A DNA stretch of 64,000 nucleotides from an uncultured Nitrososphaerota archaeon (lineage in GTDB: Archaea > Thermoproteota > Nitrososphaeria > Nitrososphaerales > Gagatemarchaeaceae), in assembly GCA_963838925.1 (NCBI GenBank), contig CAWISW010000002.1, positions 224,001-288,000 on the forward strand, given 5' to 3'. Positions 4,552 to 26,618 of the stretch are shown one piece after another (positions within the stretch are counted from its first letter, which is position 1; each line of letters opens with the position of its first letter). Both the position numbers and the translations under genes were made by a program. Below the pieces are notes generated by a model. The model ran no database searches and was not told where the DNA came from. It saw only the letters and a program-made list of their open reading frames with translations.

Positions 4552-5904
4552 ATGGCAAGGGTTATTCCAGGCGTCGAAATCAAAGTCGTCAAAGAAATCG
4601 TCCCACAGCAGCTCTACCCATCGGGCGTTGTCGGGATGATCGGCACAGCTGAGGGCGGGCCCATCCTGAAGCCCACCGGGGTCACGAGCTACAGGGAGCT
4701 CGTATCGATATTCGGGGGCGAGTCCGGTTCGCTCGTACGCGACGCGAAGCTTGCCTTCCTCAACGGAGTCTTCCAGGTCTACGCGACGCGCATCGAAGGC
4801 ACGGGCGGGACCATGGCCACCGCGAGCCTCCAGGGCGCACGGAGGAGGAACGTCGTGAGGCTCACCTCGAAGCTCTCGGGCGAGGCCGGGAACGAGACCG
4901 AGGTCATCGTGATGCGCGGGCAGAGCGAGAACACGGTACGCCTGGAGATAACCAACGACAAGATGCAGGAGACTTTCGATAACCTCACGATGCAGTCCGG
5001 GACGGAGCTCTTCCTTCCAGACTTTCTGAACGCAAACTCGAAGATAGTCGCGGCTGAGGACCTGAAGGCGAGCCTGGAGTTCCCAGACAGCAACCCCGTC
5101 GACGCCGAGATCCAGCTCGCAGGCGGAGCCTCGCAGCCGCCGACCAAGGACGACTACCAGAAGGCACTCGAGATGCTCGAGATGGAGCCGGAGGTAGACA
5201 GCGTGTATGCCTGCGACTCTTGGGACCCCGCGGTCCACGCCCTCGTCGATGCCCACTGCAAGAACATGAGCACCGACTGCAAGAACAGGATCGGGTTCGG
5301 GACGGTCGCCCCCAACGAGTCAGTCGAAGACATCCTCAAGAGGGTAGACGTCCTCGCGAGCGACAGGTTCGTCCTCACAGCTCCCTATGGGATCGGGGGC
5401 GCGGTGGCCGGGCTCATAAGCAAGCTTAGCTACTGGGAGTCGCCCACGTTCAAGGCGCTCACAGGGATAGCCAACATCGAGCACAGGTACACCCCCTCGG
5501 AGCAGATGAAACTCCTCTCCAACGGCATCTTGCCGGTTGACGCGGTGAGGGGCAGGGGGCTGATAGTGGTCAAGGGCATCACGTCCAGTAAAGAGCAGAT
5601 CAGCGTGATGAGGGTGGCGGACCACGCGGTGCGCGGCGTCAAGAACGTGGCAGACAACTTCATCGGGACGCTCAACAACGACAGGGGAAGGACGGCCCTG
5701 AGGGAAGGCCTCGCGGGCTTCCTGACAGGGATGTCCAAAGAAGGCTCGCTCGTCCCAAGCGTGGACGGGAAGAACCCGCCGTTCCTGGTCGACGTCTACT
5801 CCTCCCAGGAGGACTTCGCCCAGGGCATAGTGCGCGCGGACGTGGCGGTGAGGCCGGTGAGGGCGATGGATTATATCTACGCCACACTGACGGTGGAGGC
5901 ATAA
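4552..5904 (+). CDS. Contractile tail sheath protein
   Basis: N-terminal IPGVEIKVV, GMIGTAEGGP; C-terminal FIGTLNNDRGR and VAVRPVRAMDYIYATL typical of sheath C-domain; 450 aa. Confidence 0.9.
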   Translation: MARVIPGVEIKVVKEIVPQQLYPSGVVGMIGTAEGGPILKPTGVTSYRELVSIFGGESGSLVRDAKLAFLNGVFQVYATRIEGTGGTMATASLQGARRRNVVRLTSKLSGEAGNETEVIVMRGQSENTVRLEITNDKMQETFDNLTMQSGTELFLPDFLNANSKIVAAEDLKASLEFPDSNPVDAEIQLAGGASQPPTKDDYQKALEMLEMEPEVDSVYACDSWDPAVHALVDAHCKNMSTDCKNRIGFGTVAPNESVEDILKRVDVLASDRFVLTAPYGIGGAVAGLISKLSYWESPTFKALTGIANIEHRYTPSEQMKLLSNGILPVDAVRGRGLIVVKGITSSKEQISVMRVADHAVRGVKNVADNFIGTLNNDRGRTALREGLAGFLTGMSKEGSLVPSVDGKNPPFLVDVYSSQEDFAQGIVRADVAVRPVRAMDYIYATLTVEA

Positions 5905-5913
5905 AGGGGGTAG

Positions 5914-6321
5914 ATGGAGATGTCCACACTAGTAGCGGCGAACGCCAGCCAGATCACCATCGACGGGAAGACGGTGCCAGGGATCCAGTCCATCGACTTC
6001 AAGATAGCGAGGAACAGGCAGAACATCCACGCCATCAGCACCGAGGAGCGCCTCGGCGCCTACTATGGCGCCCTGTTCGTCCAGGGCTCGATGAAGATAA
6101 AGTCCAACTACGACCCGTTGGACAAGAAGATGTACGAGACCATCCCCGCGCTCAAGTTCTTCCAGGTCGTGGTCCAGCTTCAGCCTCAGGCCGTGACCAG
6201 CCCCACCAAGAAGATCACCTTCGACGAGTGCATCCTCGAGGACAAGACCTTCGCGATGGACGCGACCGGCGTCGGGATGACGACGTACAACTTCACAGCC
6301 ACTAGAATCCGCGAAGAGTAG
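5914..6321 (+). CDS. Tail tube protein
   Basis: 135-aa beta-rich protein directly after sheath; KITFDECI and TYNFTAT tube-like pattern. Confidence 0.75.
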   Translation: MEMSTLVAANASQITIDGKTVPGIQSIDFKIARNRQNIHAISTEERLGAYYGALFVQGSMKIKSNYDPLDKKMYETIPALKFFQVVVQLQPQAVTSPTKKITFDECILEDKTFAMDATGVGMTTYNFTATRIREE

Positions 6322-6329
6322 GCTGAGCT

Positions 6330-6701
6330 TTGGCGGATAGAAAGCTCACCAAGGAGGACATACTCGAGGGCTCCCGGAAACGGGAGACCGTCTTTGTCAA
6401 GGAGTATGGCGCCAACGTGGTGGTGAGGCCCCTCACCGACGGTGAGCTTTCGAAGATCTTTTCCATCATCGGGCCCGTCCCTCTCAACCCGGACGGGACG
6501 CCCGACCTCCGCAAGATAGAGATCGACAAGAACTTCGAGGCCCTGCGCCTGGCGACCGAGCTGGGCCTGATAGAGCCCAAGCTGGACGGAATGGGCGTAT
6601 CGGACATGAAGTTCGGGGTCCCCGAGTTCATCGGGATGAAGATCCTCGAGCTGAGCGGGGTCGCTCCGGCGGAGCAGGCTAAAAAAAAAGGCGTGAAGTA
6701 G
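6330..6701 (+). CDS. Tail assembly chaperone (gpG-like)
   Basis: LTKEDIL...VVVRPLTDGE N-terminus; position between tube and tape-measure candidate; ends in A9 run (AKKK). Confidence 0.7.
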   Translation: MADRKLTKEDILEGSRKRETVFVKEYGANVVVRPLTDGELSKIFSIIGPVPLNPDGTPDLRKIEIDKNFEALRLATELGLIEPKLDGMGVSDMKFGVPEFIGMKILELSGVAPAEQAKKKGVK

Positions 6702-6922
6702 AGGACTTCGCCCGAAGCCCGGAAGGGATTGAGTTGGCGACGCTGTGCATCGACCTCGGATACAAGCTCGCCCCCGAGGCCCGCGACCTCACGCGGATGC
6801 AGATCAACTTCCTCATGGCCGTGCTCGCGACGCGGGCGGAGTCGGCAGCGGTGGCGGACCTCGCAGAGCAAGGAGTCACGAGGATAGTGTTCAGGGACGA
6901 CGCCACGGAAGGCGGGAGTTGA
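6689..6922 (+). CDS. Tail assembly chaperone C-terminal module (gpT-like), probably reached by -1 frameshift
   Basis: -1 frame is open from the A9 run (REVEDFARSPEGIELATLCIDLGYKLA...DLTRMQINFL) and closed upstream by TAA at 6680-6682. Confidence 0.6.
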   Translation, partial: RREVEDFARSPEGIELATLCIDLGYKLAPEARDLTRMQINFLMAVLATRAESAAVADLAEQGVTRIVFRDDATEGGS

Positions 6923-6929
6923 CACCTGA

Positions 6930-9900
6930 TTGGCGAAGCGTAGCGAAAGCGAGCTCGACCGGCTGCGGAAGACCGTCGCCTCCTACGTGAAGGGACTGAT
7001 AGTCCTCGGCCTTGCCGCGCAGACGCTCTCGTCCTCTGGCGGAAGCTACCTCGCCGTGTCCCGATTGATCGGCGCAGGCATAGCCCTCGCGAGCAGGCTT
7101 CAACGAGGCATCGTCGTCAGGGTGGTGGGCGCGCCGCTGGTCAGGCGCCGTCCGCGCCGCAGGTCAAGAGCCGAAGCTTCGGAGGAGTACCCCGAGCCCT
7201 CGGGCTCCGCGGCCGAGGGAGCCACTGCCCGGGACCAGGCCTCGACGGGGTGGGAGGAGGTCGTGCCGCCGTCGCTCGCTCTCGCAGAGATAGACAGCCA
7301 GCCCTTCTCACTTGCGAGGGCGCTCCCGTCGATCGTCGCCGCACAACAATCCACTTTCAGGGCACTGTCGTCAGTCAACGCCGCCGTCTCGCGCGCGGTA
7401 GGGGGCGCGGGATTCGCATCCAGCCCATCACGGGCACCGCCCAGCCTGACGGCCCTGGAGCAGGGTCAGAGGCCGAGCCCCGAAGCGTTCCCGGAGAACC
7501 AGGCGACGTCTTTCGCGGGTGGGATGCCAGCCCTCGCGGCGGGAGTCGCGTTCAGGGCGGCCGCCTCCTCGATGGCCTTCAACCTCAGCAGCGCCGCCCA
7601 CGAGATGACCAACATCGCGCTGGGCTCCCAGGCCGTCGGCGCGAACTTCGCGTCGCAGCAGCCCCGCGCGGCGAAGGAGGGAACCGGGTTCCTGCCCGCC
7701 TCTCCCGCCGCGCCCTCGCCTTCACTCGCACAACAGTCCATCACCGGGAACGTCGACACCACGTTCAAGGGCGCCCAGCCCAGCGGCGCGAACCTAGGAC
7801 TGGTCAGCAGCGCGGGAGGCGCGTCTCCACCGACGACCCAGGCCCCTGCAGCTCCTTCGGCGGCCCTTCCTCTCACCAGAGAGTCGAGCGGAGCCCCGGG
7901 TCTATCCGCGGAGGTCGGCGGGCCTGCTGCCGGTTCGCAGTCCGGGGGAGTCACCGCCGGAACTTCTTCGTCTGGGTCTGGCGTCGAGCTGAACGCGGGA
8001 CCTTACACGGTGCCGAACGGGTTCAACTCCGTCCTTGCCTCGCCGCCCGTTGCAGCTGCCAGCCGGCTCTCGATGCAGGTCCGGTCGCTCGCTGCCTCGG
8101 CGTCTTCCGGTCAACTTCCGATTCGCGCCTCTCAGGAACCCTCCCACTCCGGAAGTCCGACCCAGGCTCTATCGGTCGTCCCCGAGCAATACCCTTCCAC
8201 ATATCCCGTGGGGGCTGCCTACTCGGTGAGCAGTCTGGTCGCGTCGCTCGGGCTCGGCCAGACCGGCCGCCCTGAGGCGCCCGCCTCCGCGCAGGAGGAG
8301 GCCGCTGCGCGGCTCACCCCGGAGGAGGCGCCGGGCGCCGAGGATGCCACAAGGACCTCGCGAGGGGCTTTCGTCGGCGAGCCGTTGGAGGCGCGGGGCG
8401 CTGGGATTGGGGGAGGGCCGTCTTCTCCAGAGGAAACAGCCCTCGGCGGGCCGCAGGTGTATGCCGAAGAGGGGGGCGCAGTCGCTTCCTCAAGCGATGC
8501 GCGCATCTCTAACGCCCAGCCGGTCGCCTCAAGGGGAGAGTTCGCATCGTTCGCTCCCGTGTTTGGCAAAAGGTGGCTCCAGTCCATAGCCGAGGCTGCG
8601 AGCATTGGGGGTGCCATGCTCGGAATGCTGACTGGCTCAGCCGCTTTGCCCTGGGACGGCACCTGGATACAGAAAGTCGGAGCGGAGGCCCGACCAACAC
8701 TCCCCTCTCGAAGCGTTTCGGGTCAAGCGATCGCGCCTCCGAGTTCTGCGGTGGGTGGCGGCCGAATCCTCGGACGAGGGGCAATCGTTCCCGAGGCGCA
8801 AGCGGCCCCCGAGGCCCGCGCGACCCAGCTTTCTAGCACCGTGTCAGGTCAACCTATCGCACCCTCGAGCTCAGGGGTGGATGGGAGCCGAGCATCTGGA
8901 AGGCGGGAATTGATTCCAGAGGTCGAGGCAGCCCCCGCGGGCACAGCTACGTCGCCAAGCGCGACTCCAGCTTCAACCGAGGTTCCGCGGGGAACCGAGT
9001 GGAGAGACTTGGCGAAGCGGGAAGAGGACATCTCGCCGACCTCGGGCCGGAACGTCCCCGCCCGGCCTCAGGAGCCGGAGTCCTCCCAGGCACCCCACCG
9101 GCAAGCCGGAATCTCGACCTGGGAGGCCGCCACGCTTCTTCCCGGGATCCTCACGCCGTCACTGTCCGCCGCCTTGTCCGCGCAAGCCCCCCCATCGCCA
9201 TCGGCAAGCCTGGACCTAAACTCCCGACCTGCCGTTTCAATCTCGACATCCGGCCTGGGGCTCGAAGGGGAGACCGCGCCAAGGCAGAGCTTCGATGCGC
9301 TCCGGCTCGCTGCTTCCCTAAGATCGGCACTTCTAGGCGTCTCCGCCAGCCTCATGGGTGCAAGGACCACCCTCCCCGCGGAGTCAGCCATGAAGCCGAC
9401 CCTCCGTCCGCAACTGGCTCAATATCTCGAGGCCACGGCCGGGAGGGGCCCCGGGACGTTCGTCAGTACCGGCGCCTCCGGCGTCTCGCGGAGGGTCGAC
9501 AGCTTCGAGCTCTCAAGAGCCCAGCGGGCACGCGAAGCCTTCCAGGGGCCCACGGAGGTCGCCTCATTCGCGACCACAAACCTTGCTGCACTTCAGGCCG
9601 CTTTCGTCTCACGCGGCTTGATCCCGGGCGGTGCGGTCGGGCGAGCGGGGAGCGCCCCCTCACTCACCATCGAGGCAGCAGGCGGGGAGGGCCAGAAGGC
9701 CACGCCGGGAACTCTTGCACCGGCCTCGCGCTCACCGCTAGCCCGGCGCGCCCTCGGCCAGTCGTCGGCGGCTCCTGAGCTGTCCTCTAGAGAGCTGGAG
9801 GAGCGAGCCCACGCGACGAACGCCGGGCGGGATCATTCCGCTTCCAGGGGTGTCTCCCCAACCAGCGAGAGAGATCTCGAGGCCGTGCTGGCATCCCTGT

Positions 9901-10304
9901 CTCGAGAGGGCCGCGGGAACGCCGAGGGGGTCTTCTTCGGCCTAGAGGCGGTCGCGCATGCCCTTTCGCTCGCTGCCAGGCTTCCGTCAGCCGCGCAGCT
10001 TAACGGCGCTCTCGCACCGATGCCCTCGAGGACCAGGGCGCCTGCCAAGGGCACGGCCCCAGCAAGGCAGGCAGCGAGGGAGGGCTCCTCGGAGGTCGGT
10101 TTCACGGCAGAGCCGTCCCGCCAGTCCGCCGAGGGCTGGAGGTCTGTCCCCGAAGAGTCAATCTCAAGGATGCTCGGAGAGCCGTCAGGCCGGCCAACGC
10201 CCCCCGCCCAAGACGCCGCTGTGGAACCTGACGACCGCGAGCTCCGGAGGAAGATCGAGAGGATCATCGACGAGGACCTTAGGAGGTACGGGTACCAGCC
10301 ATGA
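6930..10304 (+). CDS. Long Ala/Ser/Pro/Gly-rich protein in the tape-measure gene position
   Basis: 1124 aa, low complexity, helical C-terminal ELRRKIERIIDEDLRRYG; follows the chaperone pair. Confidence 0.55.
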   Translation: MAKRSESELDRLRKTVASYVKGLIVLGLAAQTLSSSGGSYLAVSRLIGAGIALASRLQRGIVVRVVGAPLVRRRPRRRSRAEASEEYPEPSGSAAEGATARDQASTGWEEVVPPSLALAEIDSQPFSLARALPSIVAAQQSTFRALSSVNAAVSRAVGGAGFASSPSRAPPSLTALEQGQRPSPEAFPENQATSFAGGMPALAAGVAFRAAASSMAFNLSSAAHEMTNIALGSQAVGANFASQQPRAAKEGTGFLPASPAAPSPSLAQQSITGNVDTTFKGAQPSGANLGLVSSAGGASPPTTQAPAAPSAALPLTRESSGAPGLSAEVGGPAAGSQSGGVTAGTSSSGSGVELNAGPYTVPNGFNSVLASPPVAAASRLSMQVRSLAASASSGQLPIRASQEPSHSGSPTQALSVVPEQYPSTYPVGAAYSVSSLVASLGLGQTGRPEAPASAQEEAAARLTPEEAPGAEDATRTSRGAFVGEPLEARGAGIGGGPSSPEETALGGPQVYAEEGGAVASSSDARISNAQPVASRGEFASFAPVFGKRWLQSIAEAASIGGAMLGMLTGSAALPWDGTWIQKVGAEARPTLPSRSVSGQAIAPPSSAVGGGRILGRGAIVPEAQAAPEARATQLSSTVSGQPIAPSSSGVDGSRASGRRELIPEVEAAPAGTATSPSATPASTEVPRGTEWRDLAKREEDISPTSGRNVPARPQEPESSQAPHRQAGISTWEAATLLPGILTPSLSAALSAQAPPSPSASLDLNSRPAVSISTSGLGLEGETAPRQSFDALRLAASLRSALLGVSASLMGARTTLPAESAMKPTLRPQLAQYLEATAGRGPGTFVSTGASGVSRRVDSFELSRAQRAREAFQGPTEVASFATTNLAALQAAFVSRGLIPGGAVGRAGSAPSLTIEAAGGEGQKATPGTLAPASRSPLARRALGQSSAAPELSSRELEERAHATNAGRDHSASRGVSPTSERDLEAVLASLSREGRGNAEGVFFGLEAVAHALSLAARLPSAAQLNGALAPMPSRTRAPAKGTAPARQAAREGSSEVGFTAEPSRQSAEGWRSVPEESISRMLGEPSGRPTPPAQDAAVEPDDRELRRKIERIIDEDLRRYGYQP

Positions 10305-15578: not shown

Positions 15579-15631
15579 CGGCTCTCGCCGAGAGAAGAAT
15601 TATAACCTCAAGAGAGGCGGAACCAAGCGGA

Positions 15632-16666: not shown

Positions 16667-16739
16667 AAGCGGGCGCTGGACGAGGACCGGCGCCTCCGTG
16701 AAAAGAAATAAGAACTCTCAGGGACTCCGGGTGAACTGA

Positions 16740-19424: not shown

Positions 19425-19437
19425 GAGATGGCGAGGT

Positions 19438-20403
19438 TTGCTGAAGCCGTCCTACAGCCTCTCGATGGGCTCTGCGAGCGTCGACCCGGACTCTAGCACC
19501 GACCTTATCTCGCTGAGGATAGACACTTCGATGAACGGCCCCGCAGGATGCTTCGAGGCCGTCCTCCGTTCGTCTGGGGGGCTGAGCGTCTCAAGGGGCG
19601 ACTCGATCACAGCCTCCCTGGGGTACGACGACACGGAGAACGTCTTCACCGGCGTGGTCGACGTAGTCGACGCGGGCTTCCACACGGTGAGGGTTTTCGG
19701 GCTCAACTCCATCGCCAAGATGATGCGCCGGCGCGCCAACACGTCCTACGAGTCCCAGACCTGCGGTGCGATCGTCTCCGACATGGCCGGGACGGCCGAG
19801 GTCACGCCGGGGGACGTCGAGGACGGCCTCACTCTTCCTTACTACATCGTCGACAGCGACATGTCCTTCCACGAGCACACGATGAGGCTCGCGAGGAGGA
19901 ACGGCTTCGACGTCTTCGCGAACGCCGACGACGAGCTCTGCTTCAAAGCTTACGAGGCATCCTCGGCAACAACCTTCGAGTACGGCAAGGACGTCATCCA
20001 TGTCTCGAGGCTCGACCAGGAGCCGGTCTACAAGGGAGTCAAGGTCTTCGGGGAGAGCCCCTCGAGCTCCCAGGGGGAGGACTCGATTCACTGGCTCACA
20101 AAGACCCCCGTCCAAGGCGAGAGCGGCAGCGGCAACGAGCTCATCGTCCAGGACGCCTCCCTCAGGGACACCGACTCCGCCGGATCTGCTGCCGAGGCGA
20201 TCCAGGGGCGATTCTCAAAGTCAATCGCCGTCATCCTCGACGTCGTGGGGAACGCCGCCGTGAAGCTCAACGACACCGTCGAAATCTCGGAGATGCCAGA
20301 CTCTTCCATCAACGGGGAGTATCAGGTTACCCGAGTGGAGCACTTCCTCGCAAAGTCCAAGGGATTCACCACGTCCTTCCGCCTCCTCGGTTCGTCGGAG
20401 TGA
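19438..20403 (+). CDS. Baseplate hub (Mu gp44/P2 gpD/gp27-like)
   Basis: SLGYDD..VFTGVVD, LARRNGF, FEYGKDVI, GEYQVTRVEH...GFTT pattern. Confidence 0.85.
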   Translation: MLKPSYSLSMGSASVDPDSSTDLISLRIDTSMNGPAGCFEAVLRSSGGLSVSRGDSITASLGYDDTENVFTGVVDVVDAGFHTVRVFGLNSIAKMMRRRANTSYESQTCGAIVSDMAGTAEVTPGDVEDGLTLPYYIVDSDMSFHEHTMRLARRNGFDVFANADDELCFKAYEASSATTFEYGKDVIHVSRLDQEPVYKGVKVFGESPSSSQGEDSIHWLTKTPVQGESGSGNELIVQDASLRDTDSAGSAAEAIQGRFSKSIAVILDVVGNAAVKLNDTVEISEMPDSSINGEYQVTRVEHFLAKSKGFTTSFRLLGSSE

Positions 20404-20480
20404 CCTAGCGTGTCCACGCCCCCCTTGCTGACCTTAAATCGGCCCGTTGGGGAACGGGGTACCATCGGGGTAGCAGACAG

Positions 20481-20906
20481 ATGAGCGAAGAGAAGCCCGT
20501 TCTTGGCAAGGACCTTCGACTCGTCTACGCGGACGTCGGCGCAGACCTCAAGGTCTCCCCGTCCGGTGACCTCGAGCTCGTCGACGACGAGCTCAACCTG
20601 GGCCAGGCGATAGTCCACAGGATGAGGACCCGTCCCGGGGAGCTCCTTGACATCGGGCACTCCTCCTACGGCTCAAAGCTCTACGACCTCATCGGGGAGC
20701 CCAACAACGAGGCCACGCGGGAGAAGGTGAGGGCGGTGGTCATCGAGGCCCTCGAGAGGGAGCCACGAGTGAAGAAGGTCGTGAAGGTCTCTGTGACGGT
20801 GAGGAGGGACAGGCCCGACGCCGTAGACGTAGACGTGAGCCTCATCGCGACGGACACTGAGGTGCCGCTCAACGTCGTCTTCCCGTTCTACCTGGAGAAC
20901 GCATAG
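20481..20906 (+). CDS. gp25/GPW-like baseplate wedge (sheath initiator)
   Basis: NLGQAIVHRMRTRPGEL..H.SYGSKLYDLIGEP, EALEREPRV, NVVFPFYL. Confidence 0.9.
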   Translation: MSEEKPVLGKDLRLVYADVGADLKVSPSGDLELVDDELNLGQAIVHRMRTRPGELLDIGHSSYGSKLYDLIGEPNNEATREKVRAVVIEALEREPRVKKVVKVSVTVRRDRPDAVDVDVSLIATDTEVPLNVVFPFYLENA

Positions 20907-20907
20907 C

Positions 20908-22521
20908 ATGTCCTACGAGACCAAGTCCTTCGAGGAGATCACGACGTCGATGCTCGAGCAGCTCACCAAGGCGGTCGTGAGGGAGAACCTGGTCTACGAC
21001 CCGACCAAGGTCAGATACCGCCTGGGCTCCGGCGAGGACGGAATCCGCGACGTGGTCAAGGTCGAAGGCCCGGTGAAGGGGGTGCGGGCGTCCTTCGCAA
21101 AGGGGACCGACTATCGGCTCTCGGAGGGGATGTTTGAGTGGTTAGAGGGCGGGAAACGACCCGACGTCATGTCGACGTTCGAGGTCTCATACCTCTTCGG
21201 TAGCCCGTCGCCCATCACGGACGTCAACCCGGGGAGCGTCGTTCGGACCATCATCGAGGCCATAGGCCGGGAGATCGAGTACCTGTACGCCCAGAACGAC
21301 TACGTCTACAAGGCGGGGTTCATAGACACCGCCTCCGGCAACTCGCTTGACCTCGTGGTCGCGATCCTCGGCGTGCAGAGAAGGCCTGCCCAGAACGCGG
21401 CGGGGCTGGTGACGTTCGGCAGGAGGAAGCCCCCGCCGGAGTTGCCTCCACAGGAGCAGGTGATAGTCTATGACGGAGGGAAGAAGTACGACCTGAAGCG
21501 GACGCCGGTCTTCGACATCATCAGCGTCAAGGGAATGCTGCACAACCAGCCGTTCGTCTTCAAGAAGGGTGCGGACTATTCCCTCGACGGCGACTCGCTA
21601 TCGTGGCTCGAGAGCACGTTCAAGCCCGACTACCGCTCAGAGTTCAGGGTCGCCTACAAGGCGTACCAGCAAGTGGCCATACCGAAGGGGACCCGGCTCT
21701 CCACCTCCTCCCGCCGTAAGCAGGAGGTGAAGCTCTTCGAGACCACAGATGAGGCTGTCCTCCAGAGGAAGCCGCTGGGCGTTTGGGAGGTCGACGTCCC
21801 CGTGAAGGCCGTGGACGCGGGCCCCGGGGGCAATGTGCTTTCGGGAAGCATCACGCTGATGCCTCAGCCGGTCGAGACGATAGAATTCGTGGTCAACAGG
21901 CAGCCCTTGAGCGGGGGCACCGAGCCAGAGACCGACAACGTCCTGAGGGACAGGGCGAAGAAAGGGCTCCGGGCACTTGGACGCGCCACATACAACTCGC
22001 TCAAGCAGCGCATCGAGGAGATTGACGGCGTCGTCAGGCCCGTGAGGATAGACGAGATGCCCGTCCTCTACTCCGTGGAGATGGGGGGGAGCGCGGTGGA
22101 CCTGCCGGTCCCGGGCGTGGTCAGGGTCATCGTCGACGGAGGGGAGATGGACAAGATCAAACAGGCGGTCGACGACACTAGGGCCGCGGGCGTATACGTC
22201 CAGATACTTCGGCCTAAGTTCCTGCTGCTCGACGTCCGGGTGCTCCTGGAGCTACAGGACGGGACCCAGCTCGCCGACGTCGAAGAGGCGATCAAGGACG
22301 GGGTGGAGGCCTACGTCGGCTCCGTCACGACAGGCGAGACGGTGATATTCGGGAGGCTCGTAGCCGTCGCGCTGGCCTCGAAGGGGGTGAGGGACGTCAA
22401 GGGCATCGCCGTGGACTACTACAGGGACGGCCAGCCGGGCGGCAGCAGCTCCAGGGAGAACATCGTGCTAGACGCGGACGAGAAGCCAAGGGTCAGGACA
22501 GTGAGCGTGCTAGTCGGGTGA
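20908..22521 (+). CDS. Baseplate J-like wedge protein
   Basis: DVNPGSVVRTIIEA, FIDTASGNSLD, AGPGGNV, GGTEPETDNVLRDRA, RAAGV. Confidence 0.9.
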   Translation: MSYETKSFEEITTSMLEQLTKAVVRENLVYDPTKVRYRLGSGEDGIRDVVKVEGPVKGVRASFAKGTDYRLSEGMFEWLEGGKRPDVMSTFEVSYLFGSPSPITDVNPGSVVRTIIEAIGREIEYLYAQNDYVYKAGFIDTASGNSLDLVVAILGVQRRPAQNAAGLVTFGRRKPPPELPPQEQVIVYDGGKKYDLKRTPVFDIISVKGMLHNQPFVFKKGADYSLDGDSLSWLESTFKPDYRSEFRVAYKAYQQVAIPKGTRLSTSSRRKQEVKLFETTDEAVLQRKPLGVWEVDVPVKAVDAGPGGNVLSGSITLMPQPVETIEFVVNRQPLSGGTEPETDNVLRDRAKKGLRALGRATYNSLKQRIEEIDGVVRPVRIDEMPVLYSVEMGGSAVDLPVPGVVRVIVDGGEMDKIKQAVDDTRAAGVYVQILRPKFLLLDVRVLLELQDGTQLADVEEAIKDGVEAYVGSVTTGETVIFGRLVAVALASKGVRDVKGIAVDYYRDGQPGGSSSRENIVLDADEKPRVRTVSVLVG

Positions 22522-23444
22522 CGATAGAATTGGAGAGGACCAGGCGGATTGCTGACAGGCTCCCCGAGTTCTACAGGACCTGGGACACCGACTCCGTCAT
22601 CTTCAAGGTCCTCGACTCGGTGGGGCGGTCCCTCAACGAGGAGCAGAAGAGCGTCTTCCGCATCATGCGGACACACTGGGTGGACACCGCCAACCGCGGC
22701 GACCTCGACAAGCTGGGCGCGATATTCGAGCTCACGAGGACCAACGAAGAGGCCGACGACGACTATCGCGCACGAATCAAGAGCGCGCTCCGGCAGTTCA
22801 AGGGCGGCGGCACAGTGGCATCCGTCAAGACTCTGATGGCCGACTTCCTCTCCGTGAGGGAGGAGGAGCTTGAGGTAGTGGAGAACCCCGAGCGCAAAAT
22901 GTCGATTGAAAAGAGAGTCGCGGGCGGCCAGACCTGGACCCTCGGGAGCATGAGCGTCGAGGAGGCCTCCCCGGTGATCGAGATGACGCTCCAGGGCGAG
23001 GGGAATGTCGTGCTAAACCCGGCGCTGAGGAACCTGGACTCGGGCGGGCGCGTGGGCTTCGAAGGGCGGTTCAGGGTCGGCCAGAGGCTGGTCATGAGCG
23101 AGGGCTCCGCCACACTCGACGGGGAAGACGTCTCGTCTTTGGTCACCGCCTCGCCCGCGTTCCCGAGGCTCAGTTCGGGCGGCTCGCGCTGGGTCTACGA
23201 GGAGGCCATCTCGGCGAAGGTCGGCCACCTCTCGAAGAGCTCCTTCGGCTCCTCGATCTTCGCCCTTCCGGTGCCCGACGCGGTGATACGCCTGACCTGG
23301 TCAGGGAGGCAGCCCTCTACCTTCGCGCTGCGGGTCCCTCCGAGGGCACTGGCGGCCAGCGGTGTGTCCGAGGGCGAGGCCGCGGACTTTCTTAATACTA
23401 TAAAGGGAGCAGGCGTGCGGGCAGAACTGGTTGTGAAGGAGTAG
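22518..23444 (+). CDS. Baseplate wedge protein (P2 gpI/Mu gp48-like)
   Basis: RLPEFY, DLDKLGAIF..R..EADDDYRARIK...GGGTV, IKGAGV. Confidence 0.75.
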   Translation: MTIELERTRRIADRLPEFYRTWDTDSVIFKVLDSVGRSLNEEQKSVFRIMRTHWVDTANRGDLDKLGAIFELTRTNEEADDDYRARIKSALRQFKGGGTVASVKTLMADFLSVREEELEVVENPERKMSIEKRVAGGQTWTLGSMSVEEASPVIEMTLQGEGNVVLNPALRNLDSGGRVGFEGRFRVGQRLVMSEGSATLDGEDVSSLVTASPAFPRLSSGGSRWVYEEAISAKVGHLSKSSFGSSIFALPVPDAVIRLTWSGRQPSTFALRVPPRALAASGVSEGEAADFLNTIKGAGVRAELVVKE

Positions 23445-23451
23445 AGCCCCG

Positions 23452-24105
23452 TTGACCAGCTTCAAGCCAAAGATCGCGCAGCCTGGGGACACCATCACCG
23501 CGGACGACTGGAACTACATCCAGCAGGGGATCCTCGAGGACCTCGTGCGACTGGAGGCCGAGAACGCGGAGCTGAGGAGGTACGTGGACAACATGTCCGA
23601 GATCAACACGATAACCCGCCTGGACAGCCCGGAGGGCAAGTCCTACGGGCTCGACGAGAAGGTCCCGGGCGAGACCGGCACCTACGGGACCGACCTGCTC
23701 GGCTTCATCACGAAGCAGTGGCTACCGTCGGTCAGGGCCGCCTCGGTCGACATATGCCGCTTCACCGTCGCCAACCTCTTCGACCAGCTCGACTTTTGGG
23801 CCGGCGCAGAGAACGGAAACCAAAAGGCGCTGGACGTCTCCATCAGGTACGTGGACGGCTCCACGGAGACCGTGAAGAACCTCGTCGTCCACGAGAGGAA
23901 GAAGCTCTCCGCGAAGGGGGCCGAGAACCCCTACGTCGAGTTCCTGCTCGCCCCCAACCAGTGGGTGTGGTACAGGTACAGGCTGCCCAACCCCCACCCG
24001 GACAGGGAGGTTCTCTCAGTGACTTTCAAGAACTCCAATCCAAAGTCGACCACCAGGATTGCCGACGTCATGCAGCTCAGGACGAAGATCAAGCAGCTGA
24101 AGTGA
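23452..24105 (+). CDS. CIS-associated hypothetical protein (possible fibre/attachment component)
   Basis: N-terminal QPGDTITADDWN plus coiled coil, then a beta-rich domain; in operon. Confidence 0.5.
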   Translation: MTSFKPKIAQPGDTITADDWNYIQQGILEDLVRLEAENAELRRYVDNMSEINTITRLDSPEGKSYGLDEKVPGETGTYGTDLLGFITKQWLPSVRAASVDICRFTVANLFDQLDFWAGAENGNQKALDVSIRYVDGSTETVKNLVVHERKKLSAKGAENPYVEFLLAPNQWVWYRYRLPNPHPDREVLSVTFKNSNPKSTTRIADVMQLRTKIKQLK

Positions 24106-24108
24106 TCT

Positions 24109-24825
24109 TTGGTGCTAAGCGAGATCTCCAGCGGGCTCGTGAAGGCGCTCCAGGAGAGGATGGAGAGCGTAAACAAGGAGAACATAGCCTCGCGCTCGCC
24201 GCGCCTCGACCCGGTGCCCCTCCCAGCCTTGTTCGTATACAGCCCCAACTTCACGTTTGAGGACGTAGGCCTCGGCGGCGAGGGCGTGGAGGTGAAGGAG
24301 GAGAAGCGGGAGTCGTTCAGCGGGGACGGCTCGCGGACGGTCTTCTCCCTGGCAGGCAAGGCCCAGAGGCCCCTCCTGCGCGTCGAGTCGTCCACGGGGC
24401 ACCTTCAGATAGAGAACGTGGACTACAAGATGGACTACAGCAGGGGGACGATAACCTTCCGCGCGCCTCCGCCCAAGGGCTCTGAGAACGTCTCGGTCAA
24501 GTACAACTCCGCGGCGGGCGCGGGCAAGACGAAGCAGATCCACATGAACGCCACCTACAACGTCGAGGTCTGGTCGGGGAACGAGAAGCAGAGGGACGAC
24601 ATCACGGTGGACGTGATAAAGGCGGTCGCCCTCGCGCAGGAGGACTTCGCGAACAGGGGGATGCTGGTCAAGCCGGTGGAGGGCGTAGACCTCTATGCTT
24701 CCAAGGAGCTGCCAGGCGGGGTCTTCGCGAAGCGCCTGGTCTACTCCGTCGAGGCGAACCTGCAGGTGAAGATTCCAGCCTCGAGAATCGAGCGGGTGGA
24801 CGTGAGGCAGCTCCCGCCCAAGTGA
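24109..24825 (+). CDS. Putative tail terminator/cap (Pvc16/DUF4255-like) with inserted beta domain
   Basis: LSEISSGLVKALQE...PALFVY N-terminus, YNVEVWS..QRDDI; in operon. Confidence 0.45.
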   Translation: MVLSEISSGLVKALQERMESVNKENIASRSPRLDPVPLPALFVYSPNFTFEDVGLGGEGVEVKEEKRESFSGDGSRTVFSLAGKAQRPLLRVESSTGHLQIENVDYKMDYSRGTITFRAPPPKGSENVSVKYNSAAGAGKTKQIHMNATYNVEVWSGNEKQRDDITVDVIKAVALAQEDFANRGMLVKPVEGVDLYASKELPGGVFAKRLVYSVEANLQVKIPASRIERVDVRQLPPK

Positions 24826-24837
24826 GTTGGCATTGAG

Positions 24838-25470
24838 ATGAGCGGAATAGTCGAGGCGATGAAGAAGGTCGCGGAGTCGGAGGTGGGGAAGGTCCACGTG
24901 GCCGAGCTCGGCGTCGTCACATCGGTCTTCCCCCACGCCGACGAGGGCGACAACGACAACTACGAGTGCAGCGTGAAGCTCAGGGACAAGGACGTCGAGC
25001 TCCGGCAGGTCCCAGTCGCGACGCAGCACATAGGGTTCGCGAGCATCCCACAGGTGGGGGACCTCGTCCTGGTCTCGTTCGTCAATGGGGACGTCAACGC
25101 CCCAGTCATCACTGGGCGCCTCTACAACGACGAGGACCGCCCCCCCGCATCACAGGCAGAAGAGATGGTCTACATCCCTCCCTACACCTCGAACCCTGAC
25201 CTCCGCAGGATATACATCGAGCTGCCCGACCAGACGGTCACTCTCACCATCCAGGACGAGAAAGTGACAATCCACGTCGGGGACACCGACGTCGCAATAA
25301 GCAAGGAGGAGGGCGTCAGCCTCACCTCGAAGCTGCCGATATCGATAAGCACCGAGGACGACCTCTCGATAAAGGCGAAGAACGTCAAGATAGAGAGCGA
25401 CGCCGACACCGAGATCACGGCGAGCGGAAAGACCACGATCAAGGGGACCACCGTGGACCTCAACCCGTAG
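24838..25470 (+). CDS. Central spike (gpV/gp5-like, OB fold plus short beta-helix)
   Basis: ELGVVTSV, IPQVGDLVLVSFVNGDVNAPVITGRLYN; C-terminal TIKGTTVDLNP. Confidence 0.9.
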   Translation: MSGIVEAMKKVAESEVGKVHVAELGVVTSVFPHADEGDNDNYECSVKLRDKDVELRQVPVATQHIGFASIPQVGDLVLVSFVNGDVNAPVITGRLYNDEDRPPASQAEEMVYIPPYTSNPDLRRIYIELPDQTVTLTIQDEKVTIHVGDTDVAISKEEGVSLTSKLPISISTEDDLSIKAKNVKIESDADTEITASGKTTIKGTTVDLNP

Positions 25471-25479
25471 TGGGACCCA

Positions 25480-25797
25480 ATGCCAGCCGCCGCCCGCCAG
25501 ACTGATCCGGTGCAAGGCAACTGCAGCCACGGCTGCCCCATATGCCCCCACCCGGTCGTGGGGATTGTCTCCGCCGGCTCGCCGACCGTGCTCATAAACA
25601 GCCTGCCTGCAGCGAGGCAGGACGACAAGGGGCTGCACGCCCCCTGCTGCGGCCCGAACAACTTCACCGTCGCAAAGGGCTCTGGTACCGTGAACATCAA
25701 CGGAAAGCCGGCCGCGAGGAGCGGGGACAGCACAAAGCACTGCGGAGGCGACGGCTCGATACAGAACGGTAGCCCGACCGTGAACATAGGAGGCTAG
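25480..25797 (+). CDS. PAAR-repeat spike tip protein
   Basis: PAAARQTD, PAARQDD, PAARSGD; His/Cys metal ligands; GSPTVNIGG end. Confidence 0.95.
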   Translation: MPAAARQTDPVQGNCSHGCPICPHPVVGIVSAGSPTVLINSLPAARQDDKGLHAPCCGPNNFTVAKGSGTVNINGKPAARSGDSTKHCGGDGSIQNGSPTVNIGG

Positions 25798-25800
25798 TCG

Positions 25801-26618
25801 GTGCCCGCCCCAGACGCGAAGATGTTCGCTCAGCTCGCGAAGACCCAGTACCTTTCCAAGGGGGTGAGCCTCCCGCCGAGCTGGGACTCGGGGCTCGAGG
25901 ACGACGTCAACGGCAAGACCCCGGAGTTCGGCCCCGGGTCCCGAAGCCCACGAACCTGTTCATGCCGCCCAGCCCCAAGAAGATAGCGGTCGACGCGGCC
26001 AACGCGATAAGCGACGGCTTCAACGGGTTCATCGACGACGTCGCTGCGGCGGTCTGCGGCGCCTGGGCGAACTGGCAGAGCTCGGTGAAGTTCGTGGGCG
26101 TCATCATCAACGGTCCGATCGGGATCCTTCCCCCCGCGGGGATGATAGGAGGGGGGATGATGGCCACGCCCATGATAATGTCTCAGTTCAACCAAAAGTC
26201 CGCGAACTACACTCTCTACGGGAGCGCCGTTGCGTTCGCGATAGGCCAGGCGTGGACCGCGTGGGAGCTGGGGTACACCAACCCCGCCATCCCGTTCCCT
26301 GGCGGCGCAGCGGCCTCTGCCACGATGCCTCCCTCTCCCAACACCCCCGTCCCGCTCGCCTCGGGAGTCTCTCCCGGGGACGCGCTGATGCAAGGAGCGG
26401 CCCTGAAGGGATTGATGATGAGTCAGGTCGCCCCTCCGGGCCTGCACGACGACGAGCTCTTCGACTCCATAGCCCAGGCCTTCGCCCAGGTCTTCCTCAC
26501 GTGGAAGGGCACGTCGATGATAAGCAACATAATGGGCGCGGGGGGCGTCGCTCCTCCTCCGCCCGCGCCTCCAGGGCCCGTTGCCGGTGCCATAGGCAGC
26601 GGCGGGGCCGTGCAGTAG
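25801..26618 (+). CDS. PAAR-adjacent hypothetical protein, split by a frameshift near 25936-25938
   Basis: Adding one G to GGG 25936-25938 joins ORFs 25801-25986 and 25962-26618 (…PEFGPGVPKPTNLFMPP…). Confidence 0.6.

Follow-up and report, generated by a model that had tools for sequence, protein, structure and literature searches.

Genes of the locus

The DNA analysed, here called the window, is a 64 kb stretch from the 1.84 Mb, 87% complete genome (G000) of a non-ammonia-oxidising Nitrososphaerales archaeon from soil. An initial annotation had described the host as thaumarchaeal, with which both the archaeal SSU rRNA and the same-genus relatives (Nitrososphaerales/Nitrososphaerota) agree. 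Positions 4552–26618 of the plus strand form a single tightly packed operon, with junctions mostly between −4 and 13 nt, some genes overlapping and all open reading frames intact. Its neighbours are cellular (Nramp, a PLP enzyme, a zinc-ribbon protein, a channel, a hexapeptide transferase and GT4). Integrase and head genes were not seen, nor was a tRNA border, and neither a lysis cassette nor a membrane complex is visible in the operon. A simple hydropathy scan detected no signal peptide or transmembrane segment in any operon protein. The features are listed below; the tube, tape-measure and receptor-binding assignments are candidates drawn from position and weak matches.

4552–5904, +, tail sheath, 450 aa (Pfam Phage_sheath_1, E = 3.6e-15)
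5914–6321, +, candidate tail tube, 135 aa (position, size, conservation; phrog_365 "tail protein", E = 8.4e-4)
6330–6701, +, G-like tail assembly chaperone, 123 aa (phrog_344 "tail assembly chaperone", E = 1.8e-3)
6681–6922, +, A9 slippery run (6681–6689) with a −1 frame extension (6683–6922, 79 aa)
6930–10304, +, Ala/Ser/Pro/Gly-rich protein at the tape-measure position, 1124 aa
10301–12481, +, DUF6046 domain like the N-domain of Mu gp43 (Pfam, E = 4.1e-7), then about 600 aa of helical apolipoprotein-like repeats
12471–13076, +, small Ala/Gln/Lys-rich helical protein, about 201 aa from TTG 12471 (no Pfam family)
13060–13815, +, gp43-like DUF6046 domain (Pfam, 3.8e-6) and Ig-like CarboxypepD_reg domain (6.9e-7)
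13812–15578, +, repeat protein, 588 aa, with about five Ig/transthyretin-like repeats of about 110 aa (translation and self-matches)
15632–16666, +, subtilisin-family (S8) protease (Pfam Peptidase_S8, E = 1.2e-11)
16740–19424, +, eukaryote-type phospholipase D (PLD), 894 aa (PLDc, E = 1.9e-13; PLDc_2)
19438–20403, +, gpD/gp27-like baseplate hub, 321 aa (phrog_52, E = 2.2e-12)
20481–20906, +, gp25-like sheath initiator (Pfam Sheath_initiator, 3e-8; GPW_gp25, 1.9e-6)
20908–22521, +, J/gp6-like baseplate wedge (Pfam Baseplate_J, E = 5.2e-25)
22518–23444, +, I/gp7-like baseplate wedge (phrog_1160 "baseplate protein", E = 4.4e-17)
23452–24105, +, candidate receptor-binding protein (short fibre), occupying the fibre position that follows J and I
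24109–24825, +, tail terminator/cap (AlphaFold model, pLDDT 82; Foldseek against PDB)
24838–25470, +, central spike, gpV/gp5 OB-fold and beta-helix (Pfam Phage_base_V, 4.6e-8)
25480–25797, +, PAAR tip (Pfam PAAR_motif, E = 1.4e-14)
25962–26618, +, Gly/Ala/Pro/Met-rich genus-specific protein after PAAR, effector or adaptor candidate
26621–27403, −, N-terminal transmembrane helix, beta-rich domain of about 130 aa and two Cys4 zinc ribbons (Pfam DZR, 5.9e-10)

Contractile-tail components

Every tail part named in the initial annotation is present at its stated position. The sheath family profile A1 is closest to the haloarchaeal Cis2 sheath (9ezm, E = 7.7e-23), with further PDB matches to 8bky (1.7e-17), 5li2 (2e-14) and Afp3 (6e-8); Streptomyces CIS sheaths are also close. 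The haloarchaeal CIS (9ezm) is membrane-bound and the Streptomyces CIS (8bky, 8bl4) are cytoplasmic, according to PMC11566945. With the sheath nearest to CIS sheaths and the remaining anatomy phage- or tailocin-like, the earlier label "hybrid" is apt. The label "Mu-like" is borne out only by the order of the genes and by a weak DNA_circ_N signal; phage Mu is not among the 23 phage records that the sheath matches (tblastn, E ≤ 1e-3).

Gene content was examined in 80 of 308 related loci (see below). The tube gene follows the sheath in 71 of the 80, and its profile has no PDB sequence match. The G-like chaperone is kept in 66, which bears out the earlier claim that chaperones are retained and now adds a conserved −1 frameshift. 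The A9 run is the sole run of A or T of at least nine in the window. The −1 frame has 38 of 72 and 38 of 68 residues identical to small overlapping ORFs in Methanosuratincola and Methanocella, both with the same A9 run; slip site and extension are conserved in three archaeal lineages. From the two frames, translated separately, we predict a GT-like chaperone fusion. An ORF at 6745–6990 was rejected as an off-frame artefact, the genuine feature at this place being the extension. The tape-measure-position protein matches no Pfam or PHROGs family, and its C-terminal motif recurs in same-position proteins of 577 and 727 aa in Methanosuratincola and Methanocella.

The 13060–13815 protein is a family-wide baseplate or tube-plug component. 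Its type occurs in 53 of the 80 loci, and its nearest ESM Atlas clusters are archaeal, with CarboxypepD_reg and DNA_circ_N on 47–53% of members. The hub also matches the N-part of NCBIfam VgrG_rel (E = 1.7e-16) and, under the cut-off, Pfam Phage_GPD (E = 0.0027), and the spike matches the VgrG C-part and phage_P2_V in NCBIfam. The VgrG-related profile is split between positions 85–188 on the hub and 415–539 on the spike, in keeping with the earlier observation that the two are separate genes. The closest PDB entries to the J-like protein are 9ndy (phage Bas63, 5.8e-11) and diffocin CD1371 (8v3w, 1.8e-10). The candidate receptor-binding protein is the family's most conserved accessory protein (mean column identity 55%). 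Its predicted fold is a long N-terminal helix with a beta-sandwich (AlphaFold, pLDDT 81), weakly matching carbohydrate-binding modules, MAM and other beta-sandwiches in the PDB (Foldseek, E ~1e-3). Foldseek matches of the terminator include the phage 812 neck (8qkh_G, E = 9.4e-9), the E217 and Pa193 necks, HFTV1 tail, T5 p142, lambda gpU, the pyocin R2 collar and the PVC cap 9qgn.

The putative cargo island and accessory proteins

The N-domain of the 10301–12481 protein is 37% identical to that of 13060–13815, and both carry sub-threshold DNA_circ_N signals (Pfam; E = 0.009 in the former). Tape-measure PHROGs also match the former (5.7e-12), as does Pfam Apolipoprotein under the cut-off (1.4e-10), and it may be an ejected effector or act as a second tape measure. 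Its gene is missing from the single-contig genome of the same genus, G007. The small 12471–13076 protein is conserved in the sister species G012 (82%) and G014 (62%). The repeat protein, with a Pfam DUF4198 match under the cut-off, is 68% identical in G012, 34% in G014, and missing from G007.

The S8 gene is missing from G014 and G007. It starts at TTG 15632 or ATG 15650, downstream of the stop codon that ends the repeat protein; a 755-aa ORF at 14399–16666 was rejected as its extent. The translation has the Asp, His, Ser and oxyanion Asn motifs, with no signal peptide or hydrophobic N-terminus by hydropathy scan. The PLD has both HKD motifs (HxKxxxxD at residues 325 and 717), an additional N-terminal region of about 190 aa and no signal peptide. 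Its closest PDB entry is plant PLD alpha1 (6kz8, E = 6.6e-59), with human PLD1/PLD2 and 7v53 also matched. Both enzymes might serve release or penetration instead of acting as injected toxins. The putative cargo proteins were not found to have an N-terminal loading domain in common, and a loading ATPase is likewise absent.

The 25962–26618 protein matches no family in Pfam, PHROGs or NCBIfam, lacks homologues among the 80 related loci and has low ESM Atlas recognition; it is conserved in G012, G014 and G007 (dN/dS 0.08–0.17). The zinc-ribbon neighbour has one hydrophobic N-terminal segment, its bulk being predicted cytoplasmic, and is a possible accessory, anchor or regulator. The 1.84 Mb genome contains two DZR loci. 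Full-length homologues adjoin the cluster in G007, G012 and G014 and also in L023, L026, L027, L029, L040, L075, L102 and L103; those outside the genus have no transmembrane helix.

Absence of head, packaging and ATPase genes

The initial annotation had described a complete tail set with no head. The structural set is indeed complete, and Pfam Phage_capsid, Terminase_6N, Phage_portal and TerL_ATPase each matched none of five genomes, including G007. These are the four informative head or packaging families, Portal_Mu being uninformative because it matched no control genome. Terminase_6N was likewise not found in the two complete genomes G041 and G042, which are those of Methanosuratincola verstraetei LCB70 and Methanocella sp. 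MCL-LM. As G000 is 87% complete, its missing part might hold head genes. The reported lack of an AAA+ ATPase is confirmed within the window, which has no PF00004 match; the nearest on the contig lie at 24.6 kb and 596 kb, the window spanning 224–288 kb.

A family of headless clusters

A search of genome contigs places the locus in a family of 308 related headless clusters of about 11.7 kb, with hosts in Bathyarchaeia, Hadarchaeota, Methanosuratincola, Methanocella, Methanoperedens, Thermoplasmatota and some bacteria. All recurrent genes lie at 0 to +10.6 kb from the sheath, and no recurrent head module occurs in the 80 loci examined. Three IMG/VR contigs with this sheath carry the tail cluster only. 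The sheath tree tracks host taxonomy, with 13 label changes compared with a mean of 41.7 in shuffles. No published description of this family was found; one published CIS survey drops clusters without an ATPase. The locus is not the one-off that it had seemed to be, as the family is large and spans many archaeal phyla; what is special to this genus is the cargo island of 6–9 kb and the shift of spike and PAAR to the operon end.

Of 42 loci, 35 have nothing in the slot between the DUF6046 gene and the hub. The remaining 7 hold enzyme or binding genes: PLD, an M12-like protease with a TPR protein, peptidoglycan amidase (Amidase_2) and PG_binding_1 proteins. In G007 the M12-like and TPR proteins are homologous (41% and 27%) to a same-slot pair in a Bathyarchaeia locus, and L026 and L074 have PG-binding proteins that share 43% identity. 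In relatives (L026, L074) some of the inserts run on the opposite strand, an arrangement as compatible with the insertion of unrelated genes as with cargo.

Inheritance and selection

Three sister species (G012, G014, G008) carry the locus at the same chromosomal site. Compared with G012, dN/dS is 0.04–0.15 in the structural genes (0.069 in the sheath, 0.038 in the tube) and 0.10–0.21 in flanking genes. The tape-measure-position protein evolves fast yet is conserved (0.24). With dS of operon genes at 0.34–0.88, similar to the flanks, these values indicate a locus that is maintained, not decaying, under purifying selection over a long divergence. The locus is vertically inherited, and the proposed domestication is upheld.

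Possible function

These results lead us to consider it moderately probable that the locus encodes a domesticated, headless tailocin-type contractile injection machine with swappable enzyme effectors. By analogy with homologous phage and tailocin machines, the baseplate would be built from the gpD-like hub, gpV spike and PAAR tip, gp25, J, I and the short receptor-binding protein, with the tape-measure-position protein and the Mu-gp43-like DUF6046 protein occupying the hub and tube channel. Tube polymerisation would be directed by the frameshifted G/GT chaperone pair, the sheath would polymerise round the tube, and the terminator would close the end. As to delivery, target and release mode, we infer that contact with the target, which may be a bacterium, an archaeon or a eukaryote, would lead to sheath contraction, driving tube and spike through the target envelope. 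Effectors on or in the tube–spike assembly would be the DUF6046–coiled-coil paralogue, the repeat protein, the S8 protease and the two-HKD PLD, the enzymes acting on the target's protein layer and membrane. As the cargo has no signal peptide, the machine is its only obvious exit from the cell. Since neither lysis genes nor a membrane complex are visible, neither a released nor an anchored mode is supported. Of the earlier description as a toxin-loaded system that delivers enzymes, the PLD and protease inside the operon stand, whereas loading and injection are presumed.

The machine may be as described while the PLD, S8 and repeat proteins are penetration or release enzymes, or unrelated genes in a permissive gap. 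Archaeal envelopes are protein S-layers, so a protease could take the role of peptidoglycan hydrolases in phage tails: it would breach the S-layer, either the target's or, to let particles out, the producer's own, and the lipase would open the membrane, both acting like tail lysozymes or lysis proteins. The frequently empty slot implies that the machine works without these genes, and the opposite-strand inserts and the lack of a visible lysis cassette also favour this explanation. However, the enzymes of G000 and G012 lie in-line, tightly spaced and co-oriented with structural genes, loci of different phyla have the same enzyme families at the same slot, and a peptidoglycan amidase and PG-binding domains are senseless against an archaeal producer's own wall. 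We regard this explanation as rather unlikely. It is also unlikely that the system stays in the cell, as a membrane-attached type-VI-like device like that of haloarchaea or a stress or cell-death device like that of Streptomyces. The closest solved sheaths, as characterised in PMC11566945, would suit such a mode, as would the lack of visible lysis genes and the conserved genus neighbour with its transmembrane helix and predicted cytoplasmic bulk. Homologues of that neighbour outside the genus have no such helix, however, and the recycling ATPase is absent, the receptor-binder-like protein with its carbohydrate-binding-type beta-sandwich is conserved in the family, and relatives' cargo targets peptidoglycan, which the producer does not have.

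A viral reading could take two forms. That the locus is instead a decaying, functionless remnant of a Mu-like myovirus provirus is extremely unlikely: its genes are ordered much as in a myovirus tail module, related archaea are reported to carry Mu-like proviruses (PMC10547907) and IMG/VR labels the three contigs viral, but the intact reading frames, the selection described above, the shared site in several species, the missing integrase, head genes and tRNA border, and the recurrence of the same headless cluster across many phyla all speak against decay. It is very unlikely that the locus supplies the tail of an active virus, with head and packaging genes located in another part of the genome or so divergent that they escape recognition. 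The incompleteness of G000, the ability of archaeal virus capsid proteins to escape Pfam models and a terminase on another contig of the relative genome G044 would allow it. Against it stand the missing Terminase_6N in G007, G041 and G042, the further lack of capsid, portal and TerL_ATPase matches in G007, the agreement of the sheath tree with host taxonomy and the stable synteny with host genes.

A contractile tail operon with no head genes recognised in the host genome

The window (contig C2, 224001-288000) belongs to a 1.84 Mb archaeal genome (G000; three contigs, 61% G+C, 87% complete, SSU rRNA match of 1475 bits to the archaeal model). Between 4552 and 26618 every long ORF lies on the + strand, and most gene pairs are −4 to 13 nt apart. 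The parts were assigned from Pfam, PHROGs and NCBIfam matches, which confirm the initial annotation in its observation of a tail set with a phospholipase D and a protease inside. The structural genes are as follows.

4552-5904 (+), sheath, a single 450-aa protein with phage-type domains (Pfam)
5914-6321 (+), tube-position protein
6330-6701 (+), tail assembly chaperone
10301-12481 (+), protein with an N-terminal DUF6046/DNA_circ_N-like domain
13060-13815 (+), second protein with this N-terminal domain
19438-20403 (+), gpD-like hub
20481-20906 (+), gp25
20908-22521 (+), J, with diffocin CD1371 among its nearest solved relatives
22518-23444 (+), I-like wedge protein
23452-24105 (+), receptor-binder candidate (model pLDDT 81)
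24109-24825 (+), tail terminator (model pLDDT 82, Foldseek)
24838-25470 (+), gpV spike
25480-25797 (+), PAAR protein

Models of the proteins at 23452-24105 and 24109-24825 were built on two family alignments, one with 21 and one with 24 members. The second model has a tail-terminator fold, with a phage 812 neck chain as its best Foldseek match (8qkh_G, E 9.4e-9) and further matches to neck proteins of E217 and Pa193, to lambda gpU, to the collar of pyocin R2 and to a PVC cap. The first model consists of a long N-terminal helix followed by a beta-sandwich weakly similar to carbohydrate-binding modules (E about 1e-3); this model and the position of the gene after J and I make the protein a candidate receptor binder. 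Hub and spike are separate, with NCBIfam VgrG_rel positions 85-188 matching the hub and 415-539 the spike, in genes ~4.4 kb apart. The two paralogues that share the DUF6046 domain (Mu gp43-like) match DUF6046 at its own cut-off or just under it and DNA_circ_N at 16.8-16.9 bits against a cut-off of 21, the homologue at the related locus L061 reaching 24.3 bits; in the nearest ESM Atlas clusters 47-53% of the members carry DNA_circ_N. The 726-aa paralogue also matches TMP PHROGs through its helical repeats. Searches of the PDB with the tube profile and the DUF6046 N-domain profile gave no usable match, and the ESM Atlas matches of the last ORF (25962-26618), to unnamed viral clusters at low recognition, were given no weight. 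A hydropathy scan detected no signal-peptide-like or transmembrane segment in any operon protein.

The absence of head genes from the locus, stated in the initial annotation, extends to the rest of the 87%-complete genome for the families searched. Phage_capsid (PF05065), Terminase_6N (PF03237), Phage_portal (PF04860) and TerL_ATPase (PF03354) each matched in none of five genomes, namely G000 and four genomes of the same genus including the single-contig, 95%-complete G007; Portal_Mu (PF06074), silent in the control genomes too, was not counted. The window contains no tRNA or Rfam match, and the flanking ORFs are cellular (Nramp, a PLP enzyme, a zinc-ribbon protein, a pentameric-channel-like protein, a hexapeptide transferase, GT4 and a phosphatase). 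With cellular flanks, no tRNA and no head families, the locus does not look like an integrated provirus. The initial annotation was likewise right that the locus has no AAA+ ATPase: PF00004 has no match in the window (12 in G000, two of them on the same contig at 24.6 kb and 596 kb, compared with 224-288 kb for the window), and no ATPase family matched among the operon ORFs in Pfam. Holin, endolysin and repressor families were also absent among the operon and flank ORFs scanned with Pfam. To our knowledge archaeal lysis genes are poorly known, so the silence of Pfam on a lysis cassette is not decisive.

The amoA gene was present in the Nitrososphaera control genome and absent from G000 and the same-genus genomes G007, G012 and G014. 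The host is apparently a soil lineage of Nitrososphaerales with high G+C that does not oxidise ammonia; the sequencing runs listed as containing the locus are DNA runs labelled soil metagenome, all from one study, with no RNA run among them.

A predicted frameshift in the tail assembly chaperone

The chaperone gene ends in a run of nine adenines (6681-6689), the sole A/T homopolymer of at least 9 nt in the 64 kb window. The −1 frame begins exactly at this run and continues to 6922 (ORF 6683-6922, 79 aa). The resulting peptide is identical at 38/72 and 38/68 positions to small ORFs that overlap the chaperone gene in Methanosuratincola verstraetei and in Methanocella sp., respectively, and the same A9 run is present in both. 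Judged from sequence, the A9 run and the −1 ORF would constitute the G/GT arrangement of tailed-phage tails, with ribosomal slippage predicted at the run. The ORF at 6745-6990, initially listed as a gene, is an off-frame artefact of this region.

The chaperone is followed by a 1124-aa ORF rich in Ala, Ser, Pro and Gly, at the position of a tape measure. It matches no family in Pfam or PHROGs, but a motif at its C-terminus recurs in the proteins of 577 aa and 727 aa at this position in Methanosuratincola and Methanocella. The gene at this position in G007 (C1, about 1900035-1903153; L011:35-3153) consists of two overlapping frames of 919 and 151 aa, with the conserved C-terminal motif in the second. 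The split could reflect a genuine frameshift, or else misassembly of Pro/Ala-rich sequence.

Enzyme genes and a proposed cargo slot

Three further genes of the operon, located between the second DUF6046 gene and the hub gene, encode a repeat protein and two enzymes.

13812-15578 (+), repeat protein of 588 aa with about five Ig/transthyretin-like repeats
start at 15632 or 15650 (+), S8 protease with Asp, His, Ser and Asn motifs present
within the operon (+), phospholipase D (PLD) of 894 aa, HxKxxxxD motifs at residues 325 and 717, Pfam PLDc and PLDc_2

The closest solved relatives of the PLD are plant PLD alpha1 (6kz8, E 6.6e-59 in 3 stretches) and human PLD1/2; with both motifs and similarity across both halves, the protein belongs to the eukaryote-type HKD PLD superfamily. 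The S8 protease has no PDB match at E ≤ 1e-3. A 755-aa ORF (14399-16666) was rejected as a single protein, its first ~410 residues being Arg/Gly/Pro-rich off-frame sequence over the repeat gene.

The stretch between the DUF6046 gene and the hub gene, here referred to as the cargo slot, was measured from DUF6046 start to hub start in the 42 loci where both were detected on one strand. The slot is shorter than 1.5 kb in 35 of the 42 and 2-4.6 kb long in the other 7; in the window it spans 6.4 kb, or 9.1 kb if measured from the first DUF6046 paralogue. The inserts identified at other loci are listed below.

Inserts in the cargo slot of related loci
L061: Amidase_2 peptidoglycan amidase
L026 (Nitrososphaerales): PLD and PG_binding_1 protein
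L074 (Bathyarchaeia): M12-like metalloprotease, TPR protein and PG_binding_1 protein
G007 (same genus as the window): M12-like protease and TPR protein

The loci L062, L063 and L065 (Bathyarchaeia, close relatives of L061) have inserts equal in length to that of L061, ~2.0 kb. The M12-like and TPR proteins of G007 and L074 share 41% and 27% identity, and the PG-binding proteins of L026 and L074 share 43%. These homologous inserts indicate that the same enzyme modules are exchanged at one position across phyla, as would be expected of effector cassettes. When 17 proteins from the cargo slot and the accessory set were compared all against all by blastp, no N-terminal domain emerged that could act as a shared loading signal.

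Elsewhere in the family the DUF6046 and hub proteins have variable C-terminal extensions. In Methanocella sp. MCL-LM, whose locus has two DUF6046 paralogues, the hub continues into a coiled coil of about 500 aa rich in Glu and Lys (L068, 15681-18299), and in Methanosuratincola verstraetei a DUF6046 protein carries a ~200-aa tail rich in E, K and G (L044, 14108-15115). The same pattern is seen in the window, where one DUF6046 paralogue carries helical repeats of amphipathic appearance over about 600 aa.

A widespread archaeal family, inherited vertically within the genus

The locus is not unique, being one member of a widespread archaeal family. Among 1.84 billion representative proteins scanned with HMMER, 554 are related to the sheath at E ≤ 1e-3, of which 80 reach E ≤ 1e-30, and in a scan of one genome per prokaryote species 308 loci encode a sheath relative. 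Among the best 80 of these 308 loci, which were examined further, sheath identity is 80-93% within the genus. At 53-65% identity, sheaths are encoded on contigs labelled Nitrososphaeraceae, Bathyarchaeia, Hadarchaeota, Methanomethylicia/Methanosuratincola, Methanoperedens, Methanocella, Methanoregula, Methanothrix and Altiarchaeales, and at 40-43% identity in Thermoplasmatota and a few bacteria; labels of Patescibacteria and Krumholzibacteria inside Bathyarchaeia clades may be binning errors. In a quick maximum-likelihood tree (IQ-TREE, midpoint rooted), which shows taxon clustering and not root or donor, the sheaths group by host taxon, with 13 label changes compared to a mean of 41.7 in shuffles.

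Comparison of the loci by tblastn of all window proteins and ORF clustering yields a compact core of about 11.7 kb with 13-14 genes, in the order sheath, tube, chaperone (with the −1 ORF), tape-measure-position gene, DUF6046, hub, spike, (PAAR), gp25, J, I, receptor-binder candidate and terminator. The recurrent gene clusters all lie between 0 and +10.6 kb from the sheath, and the recurrent upstream ORFs are cellular or zinc-ribbon genes; the flanking genes of the proteobacterial relatives are cellular too. Neither Methanosuratincola verstraetei LCB70 nor Methanocella sp. MCL-LM, both with complete genomes, has a Terminase_6N match, and in one Bathyarchaeia genome a terminase is on a different contig from the cluster. 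Three IMG/VR contigs with this sheath (L102, L103, L104) contain nothing but the tail cluster, joined in L102 and L103 by the zinc-ribbon neighbour, lack head genes and are probably cellular loci misfiled as viruses.

Within the genus the sheath was found in 6 of 22 other species, compared with 0 of 18 sampled genomes of other genera of the family and order. With the family profile it is detected in 14 of the 401 genomes in the order, G000 among them, and in 4 of 82 genera. Synteny across related genomes, named as a check in the initial annotation, holds: the cluster lies between the same host genes in the same-genus genomes G012, G014 and G008. Compared with G012, dN/dS is 0.04-0.15 for structural genes, 0.19-0.26 for the S8, PLD and repeat genes and 0.10-0.21 for flanking host genes, with similar dS in the operon and the flanks. 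The shared site and the low dN/dS at flank-like dS indicate long-term vertical inheritance under purifying selection, and not decay.

Comparison with known contractile systems

Profile comparison of the sheath with the PDB places haloarchaeal Cis2 closest (9ezm, E 7.7e-23, near full length), followed by the Streptomyces CIS (8bky), phage 812, PVC-type sheaths (9qgl; PVC, E 5.7e-10) and Afp3 (6e-8). No close named relative was found among phages or plasmids by tblastn with the sheath: the 23 phage records, none of them Mu or P2, are all below 60% identity (about 26-28% in the best match) with none covering 80% of the query, and the one plasmid record is a Kitasatospora plasmid. Beyond the sheath, the locus is built like a phage tail or an R-type tailocin: the chaperones have a predicted frameshift, a gp43-like protein is present, hub and spike are separate genes and an ATPase is lacking. 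The locus shares with R-type tailocins (pyocin R2, diffocin) and the P2 and Mu tails a single sheath, a tube, a candidate for the tape measure, a G/GT-type chaperone with a (here predicted) −1 frameshift, separate gpD hub and gpV spike, a gp25-J-I wedge, a fibre position after I, a terminator and the lack of an AAA+ ATPase, and with the tailocins also the lack of a head, no capsid, portal or terminase family having matched in the five genomes searched. The usual gene order of the family, with gp43-like protein, hub, spike, gp25, J, I and fibre, agrees with that of phage Mu. Tailocins kill by depolarisation without cargo, whereas the locus has enzyme genes within the operon and a PAAR tip. It further differs from tailocins and from the P2 and Mu tails in its archaeal host, in that no lysis cassette or SOS-type regulator is visible, and in that its terminator gene lies near the end of the operon, not before the sheath.

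The Afp, PVC and MAC systems resemble the locus as headless sheath-tube-baseplate assemblies with PAAR and a cap and with enzyme or toxin cargo encoded alongside. Their cargo genes, however, usually come after the structural operon, and their VgrG-like Afp8 is one fused gene, whereas here the cargo genes are inside the operon and Afp8 corresponds to two genes. Compared with the cis1-16 set of eCIS, the locus possesses the sheath, gp25-like, J-like, PAAR and cap/terminator genes and lacks the ATPase and the fused hub-spike. An Afp15-type AAA+ ATPase is listed for eCIS lineages I and II (Chen 2019, PMC6899500). The CIS of Halogeometricum borinquense (Sci Adv 2024, PMC11566945) belongs to eCIS clade IIa and has the canonical cis1-16 including the ATPase and a type-VI-like mode. 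In the model strain it lies on a plasmid, and it appears to have come from Firmicutes-like donors by horizontal transfer. Its toxin genes, in an “interspacing region” between structural subclusters (PMC11566945), recall the cargo slot described here. The present family differs from the haloarchaeal CIS in lacking an ATPase, in its predicted chaperone frameshift and its gp43-like protein, and in following archaeal taxonomy. The literature searched yielded no other functionally studied archaeal CIS.

A type VI secretion system (TssB/TssC, ClpV, TssJLM) does not match the single sheath, the window without AAA and the operon without transmembrane proteins. The PLD effectors of such systems (Tle5/PldA-PldB) are similar in that a eukaryote-type two-HKD PLD is tied to a contractile machine, and the PDB matches of the window PLD include 7v53, a 1099-aa bacterial “Phospholipase D” that we take to be a Tle5-type effector. 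The window PLD differs from Tle5-type effectors in being nearest to the plant and human enzymes and in having no recognisable immunity gene adjacent to it. As archaea have ether lipids, self-immunity to the PLD may be unneeded.

Possible function and significance

We believe that the locus probably, though not with great assurance, encodes a functional headless injection machine with enzyme effectors. Of the initial interpretation as a toxin-loaded injection system the machine is upheld, while the delivery of toxins is something we continue to infer. Here lies the main uncertainty. The enzymes could be penetration or release factors instead of injected cargo, and the machine could fire from the cell instead of being released.

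A wider reading, which taken as a whole we hold to be speculative and rather doubtful, is that the family represents an old archaeal lineage of ATPase-independent contractile injection machines for cross-domain attack. Its descent would be largely vertical across Nitrososphaerota, Bathyarchaeia, Hadarchaeota, Methanomethylicia and the methanogen classes, its targets would be bacteria and perhaps eukaryotes, and the DUF6046/gp43-like protein would serve as a carrier with effector domains fused on; gp43 is ejected in phage Mu. The effectors would then act on structures that archaea lack (peptidoglycan, ester lipids), which would explain why no immunity genes accompany them.

How archaea fight bacteria is, as far as we know, an open question. 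With a machine and with PLD, proteases, an amidase and PG-binding proteins at one slot, the family provides candidates for archaeal anti-bacterial weapons. Methanosuratincola verstraetei LCB70 and Methanocella sp. MCL-LM are presumably in culture or enrichment, and the presence of the family in these two archaea with complete genomes makes it testable by microscopy and proteomics; no cultured member is known to us from the genus of the window itself. A 2025 study (PMC12352652) reports, for archaeal peptidoglycan hydrolases that lack a signal peptide, some enrichment in genomes with a sheath gene, and urges a search for archaeal enzymes acting on bacterial phospholipids.

The catalogues have a blind spot for such loci. 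A metagenome CIS survey (PMC12210884) drops clusters with tape measure and fibre and no ATPase to avoid phages and R-type bacteriocins, and IMG/VR files three tail-only contigs as viruses. The ATPase filter may explain why the family is absent from the descriptions found. In the full-text literature searched, which covers subscription journals thinly and leaves out eCIS supplementary tables that could list some of these loci, we found no mention of an ATPase-less archaeal tail-like cluster family, an archaeal tailocin or DUF6046. Of particular interest are the family itself, the single position set aside for cargo and the targets in other domains of life to which that cargo points. A compact ATPase-free machine with a natural cargo slot may also interest protein-delivery engineers.

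Neighbouring genes

The gene at 26621-27403 (−), which accompanies the cluster in Nitrososphaerales loci, encodes a protein that combines two Cys4 zinc ribbons with a conserved domain of ~130 aa rich in beta structure. Homologues are found at L023, L026, L027, L029, L040, L075 and the IMG/VR contigs L102 and L103; at L027 and L029 the gene is directly upstream of PAAR on the same strand. There are two zinc-ribbon loci of this kind in the 1.84 Mb of G000, and the N-terminal membrane helix of the protein is confined to the genus of the window. A complex prediction for PAAR and this neighbour (residues 47-245) returned a score of 0.00, “no answer”, which speaks neither for nor against binding. 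Several Bathyarchaeia loci have a 777-aa protein with beta-propeller, Ig and zinc-ribbon domains nearby.

A pentameric ligand-gated-channel-like protein with a signal-like N-terminus (Neur_chan_memb, E 1.3e-6) is encoded at 27449-28417 (−), and distant paralogues of this channel (24-27% identity) lie on one side of the cluster or the other in G012, G014 and G007. A 393-aa hexapeptide-transferase ORF (27893-29074, +) overlaps the channel gene on the opposite strand by about 500 nt; since its first Pfam match begins at residue 223, the gene probably starts well inside the listed ORF. A dual-specificity phosphatase is encoded at 30728-31279 (+), some 4 kb beyond the downstream end of the cluster, and “Polymorphic toxin system, DSP-PTPase phosphatase” (Tc-R-P, E 2.6e-15) is among its Pfam matches. 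For Nitrososphaera viennensis, the species description mentions “tubule-like structures” seen by electron microscopy (PMC4129164), and Nitrososphaera MAGs carry the cluster family (L027, L029).
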